Virus record (IMG/VR): IMGVR_UViG_2671180417_000006
Location: 1-6,699 of that record
DNA from: a virus
Taxonomy: Duplodnaviria; Heunggongvirae; Uroviricota; Caudoviricetes
Length of the DNA stretch: 6,699 nucleotides
Strand: one strand, 5' to 3'
The notes under the pieces are model-generated. The model saw only the letters and a list, made by a program, of their open reading frames with translations. It ran no database searches and was not told where the DNA came from. The translations under genes and the position numbers were made by a program. Shown here one piece after another: positions 1,196 to 5,475 of this stretch. Positions within the stretch are counted from its first letter, which is position 1. Every line of letters begins with the position of its first letter.

Positions 1196-1228
1196 CAGGC
1201 ATCCTCAGGGATGCCTGTTGTTTTTGTG
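1196..1228 (+). terminator. Rho-independent terminator-like hairpin directly upstream of J
   Basis: Perfect 9-bp inverted repeat CAGGCATCC (1196-1204) / GGATGCCTG (1209-1217) with a 4-nt loop TCAG, followed by TTGTTTTTGTG (1218-1228). Confidence 0.5.
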
Positions 1229-1259
1229 CGTAACAGTTATCACAGTAAAGGGTGAGACA

Positions 1260-4200
1260 ATGGGCAAAGGTGGCGGCAGGGCGCACACGCCTCGAGAGGC
1301 GAAGGATAATCTCAAATCCACGCAGATGATGAGTGTGATTGATGCGATTGGTGAGGGACCGATAGAAGGCCCGGTGAAAGGCCTGCAGAGTATTCTGGTG
1401 AACAAAACCCCGCTGACGGGCACGGACGGTAATCCCGTGATACACGGTATGACTGCGGTCTGGCGTGCCGGGGAGCAGGAGCAGACACCACCGGAAGGCT
1501 TTGAGTCCTCCGGAGCTGAAACCGGACTGGGCGTGGAAGTGACGAAGGCAAAGCCGGTGACGCGCACCATTACGTCCGCGAACATTGACCGCCTGCGGGT
1601 TACCTTCGGGGTGCAGTCACTGGTGGAGACCACCTCAAAGGGTGACCGTAACCCGACGTCTGTCCGCCTGCTGATTCAGCTTGAGCGTGGTGGTAAATGG
1701 ATGACGGAAAAGGATGTCACCATTAACGGCAAGACCACCTCGCAGTTCCTGGCGTCGGTGATTCTGGAGAATCTGCCTGAGCGGCCCTTTAACATCCGGA
1801 TGGTCAGGGAGACGGCGGACAGCACCACAGACCAGCTGCAGAACAGAACGCTGTGGTCGTCATACACCGAAATCATCGATGTGAAACAGTGCTACCCGAA
1901 CACGGCGATTGTGGGGCTGCAGGTGGATGCGGAGCAGTTTGGCGGTCAGCAGATGACGGTGAACTACCATATCCGCGGTCGCATCATCCAGGTACCGTCA
2001 AACTATGACCCGGAAAAACGCACGTACAGCGGCATCTGGGACGGCAGCCTGAAACCGGCATACAGCAACAACCCGGCCTGGTGCCTGTGGGACATGCTGA
2101 CTCACCCGCGCTACGGCATGGGAAAACGTCTGGGGGCGGCAGACGTGGACAAATGGGCGCTGTATGCCATCGGGCAGTACTGCGACCAGACGGTCCCGGA
2201 TGGTTTCGGGGGCACAGAGCCGCGGATGACCTTTAATGCGTACCTGTCACAACAGCGTAAGGCATGGGATGTGCTCAGTGATTTCTGCTCGGCGATGCGC
2301 TGTATGCCGGTATGGAACGGCCAGACGCTGACGTTCGTTCAGGACCGCCCGTCGGATGTGGTGTGGCCGTACACCAACTGCGATGTGGTGGTGGATGATA
2401 ACGGCGTGGGGTTTCGCTACAGCTTCAGCGCCCTGAAGGACCGGCACACGGCGGTGGAGGTGAATTACACCGACCCGCAGAACGGCTGGCAGACCTCCAC
2501 GGAACTGGTGGAAGACCCGGAAGCCATACTGCGCTACGGGCGCAACCTGCTGAAGATGGATGCGTTCGGCTGCACCAGTCGCGGTCAGGCCCACCGTGCC
2601 GGACTGTGGGTGATAAAGACCGGACAGCTGGAAACGCAGACGGTGGATTTCACGCTCGGGTCACAGGGGCTGCGTCACACACCCGGTGACATTATTGAAA
2701 TCTGTGATAACGACTATGCCGGGACCCTGACCGGCGGACGTATCCTGTCCATCGATGCCGCCAGCCGCACCCTGACACTGGACCGTGAGGTGACCCTGCC
2801 GGAGACAGGTGCCGCCACGGTGAACCTGATTAACGGCAGCGGTAAGCCGGTGAGCGTGGCCATCACTGCACACCCCGCGCCGGACCGGATACAGGTCAGC
2901 ACCCTGCCTGATGGTGTGGAGACATACGGTGTATGGGGACTCTCCCTGCCGTCACTGCGTCGTCGCCTGTTCCGCTGTGTTTCCATCCGGGAAAACACGG
3001 ACGGTACCTTTGCCATCACGGCAGTGCAGCATGTGCCGGAGAAAGAAGCCATCGTGGATAACGGGGCCAGCTTTGAGCCGCAGTCAGGCACCCTGAACAG
3101 CGTCATCCCTCCGGCAGTGCAGCACCTGACGGTGGAGGTGAGCGCAGCTGACGGCCAGTATCTGGCGCAGGCGAAATGGGACACGCCGCGGGTGGTGAAG
3201 GGCGTGCGCTTCAGTCTGCGCCTGACCAGTGGAAGCGGTCAGGACAGCCGTCTGGTGACCACCGCCATCACTGCGGATACAGAGCATCGTTTCAGTGGTC
3301 TGCCGCTCGGGGAATACACCCTGACAGTCAGGGCAATTAACAGTTATGGCCAGCAGGGGGAACCGGCCACCACCACGTTCAGGATTAATGCACCTGCGGT
3401 ACCCGCCACGATTGAGCTGACACCGGGCTATTTTCAGATAACAGCGGTCCCGCGTCTTGCGGTGTATGACCCGACGGTACAGTTTGAGTTCTGGTTTTCG
3501 GAAACGCGGATTACCGATATCAGGCAGGTTGAAACCACAGCCCGCTACCTTGGCACGGGGCTGTACTGGATAGCCGCCAGTATCAATATCAAACCGGGCC
3601 ATGATTATTACTTTTATATCCGCAGTGTGAACACCGTTGGCAAATCGGCATTCGTGGAGGCTGTTGGTCAGCCGAGTGATGATGCATCCGGCTATCTGGA
3701 TTTTTTCAAAGGCGAGATAGGGAAAACCCATCTGGCTCAGGAGCTGTGGACGCAGATTGATAACGGTCAGCTTGCGCCTGACCTGACTGAAATCAGGACG
3801 TCCATAACGGATGTCAGCAATGAAATAACACAGACCGTCAATAAGAAACTGGAAGACCAGAGTGCAGCGATCCAGCAGATACAGAAGGTTCAGGTTGATA
3901 CAAATAATAACCTGAACAGCATGTGGGCAGTGAAGCTGCAGCAGATGCAGGACGGACGCCTTTATATTGCGGGTATCGGTGCCGGTATTGAGAACACCCC
4001 CGACGGCATGCAGAGTCAGGTGCTGCTGGCAGCAGACAGGATTGCGATGATTAATCCTGCGAATGGCAACACAAAGCCGATGTTTGTTGGTCAGGGCGAT
4101 CAGATATTCATGAATGAAGTGTTCCTGAAATATCTGACGGCTCCCACCATTACCAGCGGCGGTAATCCTCCGGCATTTTCCCTGACACCAGACGGGCGAC

Positions 4201-4751
4201 TGACGGCGAAAAATGCGGATATCAGTGGCAGTGTGAATGCGAACTCAGGAGCGCTCAACAATGTCACGATTAACCAGAACTGTACGATTAAGGGCATGCT
4301 GGAGGCGACCCAGGTCAGAGGGGATTTCGTTAAAGCTGTATCAAAAGCCTTCCCGAAAAAAGTCGGTACGTGGGGTAACACGGAAACACCAAACGGTACG
4401 GTTACAGTCACCATCAGCGATGATCATAACTTTGACCGCCAGATTATTATTCCGCCCATTATTTTTAACGGTATAGCGTATGACGATCCGGGGAGCGGAA
4501 ATAACCCAGGAGGCACGCGATACACGGGTTATGGTTTTGAAGTTCGCAAAAACGGCGTATTAATCGCATCCAGAGAAACTAAAGGGGCCATTCCCGGTAG
4601 TTACAGTGCAGTTATTGATATGCCTAGTGGTGGTGGTAGCGTCACTCTGGAGTTTAAGATTTTCCAGAAAGGCAATCAGGGGGCAGGCAATATCACCGAC
4701 TGTACGGTGATTGTGACCAAAAAAGCTGCTTCCGGCATCAGTATTCGTTGA
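1260..4751 (+). CDS. J: Tail tip central fibre / host specificity protein J (about 1163 aa)
   Basis: ATG at 1260 preceded by AAAGGGTGAG (Shine-Dalgarno-like) 4-12 nt upstream; stop TGA 4749-4751. [39 protein letters not shown]... matches the lambda gpJ N-terminus ([18 protein letters not shown]...) as recalled, with conservation along most of the length (e.g. [76 protein letters not shown]). The ORF track's 1218 start is an in-frame non-ATG start inside the upstream terminator and is unlikely. Confidence 0.92.
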
Positions 4752-4773
4752 AATATTTATAACCCCAATAAAG

Positions 4774-4800
4774 GGCGTCAGGAATGACGCCTTTTTTATT
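4774..4800 (+). terminator. Rho-independent terminator between J and lom
   Basis: Stem GGCGTCA (4774-4780) / TGACGCC (4785-4791) with GNRA-type loop GGAA, followed by TTTTTTATT (4792-4800). Confidence 0.6.
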
Positions 4801-4821
4801 GCAGAAAAGCGAGAGGTAATT

Positions 4822-4893
4822 ATGCGTAAACTTTATGCCGCCATTTTGTCCGCAGCCATTTATCTGACCGTATCCGGTGCGCCTGCATGGGCG
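4822..4893 (+). other. Predicted Sec signal peptide of Lom (24 aa, cleavage after AWA)
   Basis: Positive N-region (MRK), hydrophobic core ([14 protein letters not shown]), and A-x-A (AWA) before SEQQ. Confidence 0.6.
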
Positions 4894-5421
4894 TCTGAGC
4901 AGCAGGCCACGCTGAGCGCGGGGTATCTTCATGCCCGGACGAACGCTCCCGGTAGCGATAATCTTAACGGGATTAACGTGAAATACCGTTATGAATTCAC
5001 GGACACGCTGGGGCTGGTGACGTCATTCAGCTATGCAGGAGACAGGAATCGCCAGATTACCCGTTACAGCGATACCCGCTGGCATGAAGATTCCGTGCGT
5101 AACCGCTGGTTCAGCGTAATGGCGGGGCCGTCTGTGCGCGTGAATGAATGGTTCAGCGCGTATGCGATGGCGGGTGTGGCTTACAGCCGTGTGTCGACTT
5201 TCTCCGGGGATTATCTCCGCGTAACTGACAACAAGGGGAAAACGCATGATGTGCTGACCGGAAGTGATGACGGTCGCCACAGCAACACGTCTCTGGCGTG
5301 GGGAGCTGGCGTGCAGTTTAACCCGATCGAATCCGTGGCCATTGATATTGCTTATGAAGGCTCCGGCAGTGGCGACTGGCGCACTGACGGTTTCATCGTG
5401 GGTGTCGGTTATAAATTCTGA
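4822..5421 (+). CDS. lom: Lom, Ail/Lom/OmpX-family outer-membrane beta-barrel protein (prophage moron)
   Basis: ATG at 4822 with GAGAGG 7-12 nt upstream; stop TGA 5419-5421; 199 aa. N-terminal signal peptide [24 protein letters not shown] with an AxA cleavage motif. C-terminal ...[28 protein letters not shown] ending in an aromatic residue is the beta-barrel OMP signature and matches the lambda Lom C-terminus as recalled, as does the internal [12 protein letters not shown] motif. Confidence 0.9.
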
Positions 5422-5447
5422 TTAGCCAGGTAACACAGTGTTATGAC

Positions 5448-5475
5448 AGCCCGCCGGTTCAGGCGGGCTTTTTTG
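5448..5475 (+). terminator. Rho-independent terminator between lom and stf
   Basis: Stem AGCCCGCC (5448-5455) / GGCGGGCT (5462-5469) with loop GGTTCA, followed by a T-run (5469-5474). Confidence 0.6.

Follow-up and report, generated by a model that had tools for sequence, protein, structure and literature searches.

Terminator-type hairpins at cargo boundaries and a leftward PasB/EcOnc22-24-type small RNA gene in the tail-tip region of a lambda-like prophage

We examined the intergenic hairpins in a 6,699-nucleotide stretch of a tailed-phage genome (Caudoviricetes; IMG/VR record IMGVR_UViG_2671180417_000006, positions 1 to 6,699; hereafter the window). This window covers the tail-tip end of a lambda-like prophage of the Shiga toxin (Stx) phage type and, compared with phage records, matches several Stx2a-converting phages at 95-96% identity along its whole length. 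Its gene order is K' (the 3' part of tail assembly gene K), I, a 234-bp gap, J, lom and the start of stf, and three hairpins followed by U-rich tracts, here called T1, T2 and T3, lie ahead of J, lom and stf, respectively. We consider it probable that these are + strand hairpins of the intrinsic-terminator type that bound accessory cargo between essential tail-tip genes, being overridden by Q during lytic growth and stopping unmodified polymerase in the lysogen. This reading is built on the structures themselves, their conservation on the + strand, their position beside cargo, and the identity and orientation of an RNA gene in the I-J gap.

The arrangement would work as follows. One cargo slot, between I and J, holds a leftward small RNA (sRNA) gene of the PasB/EcOnc22-24 type that has a promoter and, facing I, a terminator of its own, as well as a possible CRP site; T1 would be the rightward terminator on the J side of this slot. 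The other slot is lom, flanked by T2 and T3, of which T3 would also close any lom unit. During lytic growth, Q-modified polymerase on the late transcript would ignore T1-T3, as the late operon is read by a Q-modified, terminator-resistant polymerase (PMC9388147, PMC7547250, PMC10695390). In the lysogen, unmodified polymerase moving rightward, whether it had started at stray sites or divergently in the sRNA promoter region, would be halted before it reached J, lom and stf.

An earlier reading made from the sequence alone (the sequence-only reading) had listed a hairpin and T-run at each of the three sites, and all three are present on the + strand where it placed them and fold better than shuffled sequences. 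The T1 stem of 10 bp (1195-1218, ACAGGCATCC-TCAG-GGATGCCTGT) is followed by an interrupted U-tract, TGTTTTTGTG, that runs to 1228 (T-score 3.1) and ends 31 nt before the J ATG (1260); it has a predicted free energy (dG) of -18.3 kcal/mol and a z-score of -4.0, and none of 200 shuffles folded equally well. T2 consists of a 7-bp stem (4774-4791) and six T residues (4792-4797), 22 nt past the J stop (4751) and 24 nt ahead of the lom ATG (4822); its z-score is -4.75 and again 0 of 200 shuffles were as good. T3, an 8-bp stem (5448-5469) with six T residues to 5475, lies 10 nt from the stf ATG (5486), with a z-score of -3.0 and 4 of 200 shuffles as good. A terminator score of the d'Aubenton-Carafa type, computed with modern energies and hence approximate, gave +11 for T1, +27.6 for T2 and +33.8 for T3 on the + strand. 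The terminator scan reported T2 on the - strand only, where its tail is poor and it scores -24.7; T2 is thus not bidirectional despite its A/T-extended palindrome. The window held 11 terminator-like matches, compared with 5.5 +/- 2.1 in shuffles, and the top-ranked ones all fell within the three intergenic gaps. An Rfam search at a permissive threshold returned only two sub-threshold chance matches (a Trp leader on T3 and a human long non-coding RNA), in the region of the lom 3' end and T3.

Conservation was assessed in 76 I-J junctions and 80 lom loci from IMG/VR, together with enterohaemorrhagic E. coli (EHEC) Sakai, enteropathogenic E. coli (EPEC) E2348/69, E. coli K-12 and lambda. Across 15 distinct variants of T1, 98.7% of cells were paired; one pair changed from C-G to U-A by way of U·G, and there were eight G·U cells in total. 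Among 12 variants of T2, 95.8% of cells were paired and two pairs were altered on both sides, i.e. covarying, while T3 was nearly invariant across the 80 loci and also had G·U variants. Partners slid along the sequence as a control were paired in only 30-60% of cells, as against 96-99% for the true stems. Since each G·U pair on the + strand would be an A·C mismatch if read on the opposite strand, selection appears to have acted on + strand RNA. The covariation is modest, the relatives being close, and it agrees with the structures without being overwhelming. With their GC-rich stems, 3' U-rich tracts and RNA-level conservation on the + strand, T1-T3 are strand-specific RNA elements of the intrinsic-terminator type.

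The three positions are occupied by such elements even where the sequences are unrelated. Lambda carries a hairpin and U-run at each of them (I-J, J-lom and lom-stf), all on the + strand; its lom-stf hairpin is the T3 sequence apart from the loop, whereas its I-J and J-lom hairpins are unrelated in sequence to T1 and T2 and weaker (scores -4 and +9). Tandem terminators beyond J in lambda, termed t'J, were reportedly described by Luk and Szybalski in 1983; our literature search found no paper that maps them. The E. albertii-type junction has yet another, unrelated + strand terminator before J, and prophage PP6 of EPEC E2348/69 has a different hairpin, followed by seven T residues, past lom and just before stf. 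T3 and its flanks occur identically in the cryptic Rac prophage of E. coli K-12 (NC_000913.3 1429011-1429038; locus L205 5012-5039), where they sit between an IS5-disrupted lomR and stfR; the supplements of a K-12 3'-end study contain no entry for lomR or stfR.

Two observations concern individual copies of these hairpins. At the J-lom junction of locus L164, a differing sequence upstream of lom joins inside the T2 hairpin, so that the 3' arm and T-run are retained, the 5' arm is swapped and a 5-bp stem remains. Because the junction falls within the hairpin, it suggests that the left recombination boundary of the lom module is inside T2. In Sakai Sp15, an Stx1 prophage, J is annotated as two overlapping coding sequences (ECs_2943 and ECs_2944; L001 1719-5191) and is thus disrupted, as fits a cryptic prophage; the sRNA island and all three hairpins are still kept.

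The distribution of terminators along the late region points to cargo as well. We scanned a complete, 95%-identical Stx2a phage for + strand terminator matches with at least 7 stem pairs, and every such match in the late region adjoined cargo: those in the Q-to-holin region, with its tRNA, stx2 and esterase genes, and, beyond that region, T1 and T3. T2 was reported on the - strand, as in the window, and there was no such + strand terminator in the 14.6 kb from the terminase to I.

The sequence-only reading had further supposed that an RNA might be expressed from the I-J island. An RNA is encoded there, but it runs leftward, antisense to the tail genes, and has its own terminator; T1, which is oppositely oriented and located upstream of the sRNA promoter, cannot serve it. 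The terminator and promoter on the - strand, both absent from the earlier list, frame a predicted leftward RNA of about 77-92 nt, whose 3' end would be at 1032 and 5' end near 1108 by homology to the mapped ends of PasB, with a predicted primary start near 1123. This terminator (dG -14.2, z-score -4.2, score +35.7) keeps its stem across alleles while its loops vary, and a compensatory variant, CCCACAG/CTGTGGG, occurs. The promoter is the best sigma-70 match in the window, and in the PasB allele the corresponding -10 is a perfect TATAAT.

By its sequence and position, the island RNA is an allele of the Hfq-dependent sRNA known as PasB in EPEC and as EcOnc22/23/24 in EHEC. Tree et al. reported the Hfq-binding sites EcOnc22/23/24 in Sakai and a northern band of about 85 nt that was destabilised without Hfq (PMC4104026). 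The I-J island is present in Sakai prophages Sp15, Sp14 and Sp11, and the northern probe (GGGAGAGAACGATGAAGATTAAC...) maps within all three islands in the tail-sense orientation; it therefore detects a leftward RNA. In NC_002695.2 the Sp15 copy of the sRNA terminator spans 2902893-2926, with the sRNA on the + strand of that record. PasB of EPEC E2348/69 is an 83-nt RNA (NC_011601.1 1466343 to 1466261, - strand; probe AATCCCGCAGTGATCGCGGAGCT; PMC8550237 Table S6), which, when mapped on locus L203, sits between I and J of PP6 with its 3' end exactly past the seven U residues of the homologous terminator. An alignment of the window, PasB and the Sp15 copy shows a shared terminator stem (CCCGCAG/CTGCGGG, followed by U7), the stretch UUAAUCUUC just 5' of the stem, the -10 box and the upstream block; UUAAUCUUC is the seed proposed by Zhu et al. 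(bioRxiv 10.64898/2026.05.13.724894). The window copy thus has the I-J location, leftward orientation, terminator and seed-like stretch of PasB and EcOnc22-24, and a predicted length close to theirs, but its 5' body differs from both published alleles, and these differ from each other. A comparison of window positions 1066-1125 (- strand) with L203 862-944, L001 5192-5431, L011, L020 and L082 distinguished at least five allelic body forms with a common terminator stem, UUAAUCUUC and promoter block. Accordingly variable in their bodies, PasB and EcOnc22-24 appear from their sequences to be one family. Table S6 of the EPEC study names EHEC homologues for PasA and PasD and none for PasB (PMC8550237), and the link may not yet be in print. 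No Rfam family matches the island RNA, PasB and EcOnc22-24 being without an Rfam model. Hfq binding and Hfq-dependent stability were reported for PasB and EcOnc22 (PMC8550237, PMC4104026). Pairing in trans of the sRNA body with the translation start regions of J, lom, stf and I gave no signal above shuffles. The prophage family that carries this island is common, with a match in 1407 of 5426 complete E. coli genomes and up to 8 places per genome.

Two other assignments were considered and rejected. HnrS (EcOnc10-12) is located after the endopeptidase gene in Sp10 and not between I and J. When the published coordinates were read directly on NC_002695.2, the EcOnc22 Hfq peak seemed to fall on T1, but the assembly versions are offset by about 137 bp, as calibrated on the Rfam match of AgvB, and the probe sequence confirmed that this placement was an artefact.

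Upstream of the sRNA promoter lies a CRP-like palindrome, centred 44.5 nt upstream of the predicted sRNA start, or 41.5 nt if the -10 box is GCTAAT. Such a match is expected 0.2 times by chance in the window and occurred at least once in 38 of 200 shuffles, so it is not significant alone. Its half-sites, TGTGA-N6-TCAGA, are kept in 50 of 52 copies (distinct junction sequences; the other two have TCATA and TCAGG), while the N6 spacer varies (AGATAT, AGAAAT, AGAATT, AGAGTT, ATAAAC); the block is present in the window and in 51 distinct related junction sequences. Backed by this conservation, we regard it as a possible CRP site and as a lead only.

The island has the features of inserted DNA: the I-J gap measures 234 bp in the window and 60 bp in lambda, and its GC content is 39.5% (1001-1200) compared with 55-62% in the flanks. 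Distinct junction sequences numbered 66, comprising 51 with an sRNA island, 12 of lambda type and 3 of sodC type. A + strand terminator stood before J in every one of the 51 sRNA-island junctions, namely T1 in 47 and an unrelated one in 4; the 12 lambda-type junctions carried the lambda hairpin, and in the 3 sodC-type junctions J was not preceded by any + strand terminator. Where a locus had a pair of sRNA modules in tandem, T1 occurred only after the J-proximal one, a pattern that marks it as belonging to the boundary between slot and J and not to each sRNA unit.

The slot also holds other cargo. sodC, encoding a Cu/Zn superoxide dismutase on the - strand, replaces the sRNA in 14 IMG/VR loci and in E. 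albertii (L007, L012, L043, L086 and relatives), and a second, unrelated leftward sRNA-like unit is found behind the same promoter block in L061 and L066, with a terminator CTCCCGTAATA...TATTACGGGAG and a body that contains GAATAGTCACC; in L064 and L067 it stands in tandem with a PasB-type unit. Judged by these sequences, the I-J slot is a general hot spot for antisense cargo. A further proposal, which we offer tentatively and with considerable doubt, is that lambda-like tails may reserve their I-J gap for modular sRNA cassettes, whose interchangeable bodies (at least five of PasB type, plus an unrelated second sRNA, with two at times in tandem) would be framed by a conserved terminator and a promoter block that is nearly invariant and perhaps under CRP control. 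On this view T1 would be purposely kept, either to insulate J, lom and stf from catabolite-regulated promoter activity in the lysogen or to trim J in lytic growth.

The sequence-only reading had taken the terminators to carve the prophage into independently expressed units, lom above all, with promoters immediately downstream of each terminator; as an explanation of T1-T3 we find this highly improbable. According to reviews, lysogens do express lambda lom (PMC7067206, PMC3594210), and T3 would be a good terminator for a lom unit. However, only 31, 24 and 10 nt separate T1, T2 and T3 from the next ATG, and no sigma-70 promoter fits there because these spacings already include the Shine-Dalgarno sequences. 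Neither a standard nor a relaxed sigma-70 scan found a + strand promoter for lom, apart from a weak extended -10 upstream of T2, and a literature search turned up no mapped lom promoter. Any lom promoter would have to overlap or precede T2, and T2 would therefore hinder independent lom transcription. EPEC E2348/69 PP6 carries the same T2, and in published RNA-seq data from this strain the lom homologue behind it had a DESeq2 baseMean of 2.0, and I, J and stf had values of 4.8, 15 and 7, respectively, compared with 482 and 1082 for PasB in two conditions (PMC8550237). In the EPEC lysogen, then, it is the small RNA that is expressed, lom being silent like the tail genes, and the island RNA lies on the strand opposite to the one that the terminators would serve. 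Independent expression of lom from the repressed prophage is thus not borne out.

It is also unlikely, in our judgement, that the hairpins act mainly on the late mRNA, capping 3' ends after processing of the 27-kb late transcript (or, for T1, the 5' end of a J segment) and giving I, J, lom and stf differing stabilities and protein ratios, with U-runs that are incidental or mildly attenuate the Q-modified polymerase. The lambda I-J hairpin is kept in cargo-free lambda-type phages despite its poor terminator score, and in most T1 and lambda variants the loop reads C(UCCG)G, a stable tetraloop of the UNCG type, which hints that RNA stability is under selection; the leftward sRNA could pair along its whole length with the late mRNA immediately 5' of T1, which makes processing there conceivable. 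Yet three or four unrelated sequences at the same positions pair a GC-rich stem with an immediate U-run, which a pure stability hairpin would not need, and strong hairpins occur only at cargo boundaries and not between structural genes of very different copy number. We give still less credence to the idea that T1 terminates a rightward, unannotated RNA (about 60 nt) that would start near 1167 in the promoter block, divergent from the PasB-type sRNA. The window does contain an extended -10, TG-n-GAAAAT, at 1152-1160 and a -35, TTAGCA; the U-rich stretch, hairpin and U-tail form the usual Hfq-binding 3' module, and no part of the island is better conserved than the block 1157-1228. Moreover, the Hfq cross-linking and cDNA analysis (CRAC) screen kept sites antisense to coding regions or more than 100 bp from them, and would have dropped a sense site near J (PMC4104026). 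Against such an RNA, the candidate -10 and -35 are not conserved in other alleles (GGAAAT or AGAAAT, with a variable -35), tandem loci have the next sRNA terminator directly after the block and no T1, and the upstream region of the leftward promoter together with the CRP-like site explains much of the block's conservation (about 1157-1184, through TTTTAT).

Several points weigh against the view of T1-T3 as cargo-bounding terminators that stop polymerase in the lysogen. No promoter was found that feeds rightward transcripts to T1, save for the weak, allele-specific extended -10, and termination at T1-T3 is something we infer from their sequence. T1, with its interrupted U-tract, has the lowest score of the three, and the lambda I-J hairpin scores about -4. 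Insulation is not obligatory either, because the sodC-type junction has antisense cargo and no + strand terminator before J.

The closest known systems are the morons, inserted units with their own promoter and terminator that are expressed from a repressed prophage (PMC3594210). The sequence-only reading's notion of terminators that are read through by Q-modified polymerase and insulate units in the lysogen stands to the extent that terminator-type hairpins do flank cargo in a Q-antiterminated operon (PMC3594210); it is the textbook moron idea and not new. Like the HK97 gene 15 element and lambda lom and bor, the I-J island is extra DNA of differing base composition between genes that are adjacent in relatives, the slot alternatively holding sodC or other sRNAs, and it is embedded in a Q-antiterminated late operon. 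Morons have a promoter, a factor-independent terminator and expression in the repressed prophage (PMC3594210); the sRNA unit has a predicted promoter and terminator, lom has T3 and no detectable promoter, and the data on expression are published ones from homologous copies (PasB, the EcOnc22 northern, and the lom homologue at 2.0). Unlike the morons, the I-J cargo of the window is a non-coding antisense sRNA with its own terminator facing I, T1 is an additional + strand hairpin on its far side, and no lom promoter was found in the window's lineage. The terminator tR' of Stx phages (StxS locus) is likewise an intrinsic terminator of the late unit that works constitutively in the lysogen and is read through once Q has loaded (PMC7547250). 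It differs from T1-T3 in lying directly after the late promoter and in that its terminated product is an sRNA, whereas T1-T3 lie 24-29 kb downstream with no promoter known to feed them in the lysogen.

Terminators that bound lysogen-expressed cargo in a Q-antiterminated operon are thus familiar, and the island RNA has been published under two names. The useful outcome is a corrective one, namely that the I-J island carries a PasB/EcOnc22-24 sRNA on the opposite strand. What is new is limited to T1 as a constant companion of the sRNA slot, the apparent unity of PasB and EcOnc22-24, and the conserved CRP-like palindrome. Should T1 prove active as an insulator, it would offer a convenient natural part and a way to recognise slots with sRNA cargo among prophage tail genes. 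The features of the window are collected in Table 1.

Table 1. Features of the 6,699-nt window, with the Sakai Sp15 copies of the three hairpins
Feature	Position	Strand	Basis
Tail assembly gene K, 3' part, C40 peptidase type; cut by left window end	19..447	+	open reading frame (ORF); annotation in 95-96% identical phages, E2348/69 and Sakai loci
Tail assembly gene I	345..1025	+	ORF; Pfam Lambda_tail_I, E 6.5e-16
I-J island, 234 bp, AT-rich, cargo slot	1026..1259	none	GC content; comparison with lambda gap; mosaic slot variants
sRNA gene, Hfq-type, leftward; PasB / EcOnc22-24 allele	1032..1123	-	homology to PasB; EcOnc22/23/24 northern probe
sRNA intrinsic terminator, abuts I stop codon	1032..1064	-	stem 1064-1057 / 1046-1039, then U7 at 1038-1032
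sRNA sigma-70 promoter, inferred	1130..1157	-	-35 TTCACA 1157-1152, 16 nt spacer, -10 AATAAT 1135-1130; 10/12 match
CRP-like palindrome TGTGA-N6-TCAGA, lead only	1160..1175	none	1 mismatch to TGTGAN6TCACA
T1, terminator-type hairpin and interrupted U-tract, J-proximal slot edge	1195..1228	+	folding, terminator score, covariation
Gene J, tip attachment / host specificity	1260..4751	+	six GpJ Pfam domains; ATG placed by aligning the J starts of lambda and Sakai
T2, terminator-type hairpin and T6, between J and lom	4774..4797	+	folding, terminator score, covariation
lom, Ail/Lom outer membrane protein	4822..5421	+	Pfam Ail_Lom, full length, E 2.4e-116
T3, terminator-type hairpin and T6, past lom, 10 nt ahead of stf	5448..5475	+	folding, terminator score, conservation
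Side tail fibre gene stf, 5' part; cut by right window end	5486..6699	+	Pfam phage_tail_N, Collagen, Phage_fiber_C; translation
Sakai Sp15 copies, NC_002695.2	T1 2902735-2902763; T2 2899175-2899198; T3 2898498-2898524	-	

A scan of contigs with the J N-terminus returned mostly lambda itself in unrelated assemblies and added little diversity. In assemblies labelled Streptomyces, Neobacillus, Shewanella, Bradyrhizobium, Pseudomonas and others we found short contigs (loci L088, L090-L106, L111, L114 and others) that contain either the lambda I-J region exactly or J of an E. coli prophage; these are almost certainly lambda control DNA or E. coli contamination. Finally, about 37 collagen-like Gly-X-Y triplets follow one another without interruption in the stf product (window 6230-6560, codons about 249-360; Pfam Collagen E 3e-18), preceded by a low-complexity stretch rich in Ala, Glu and Ser.

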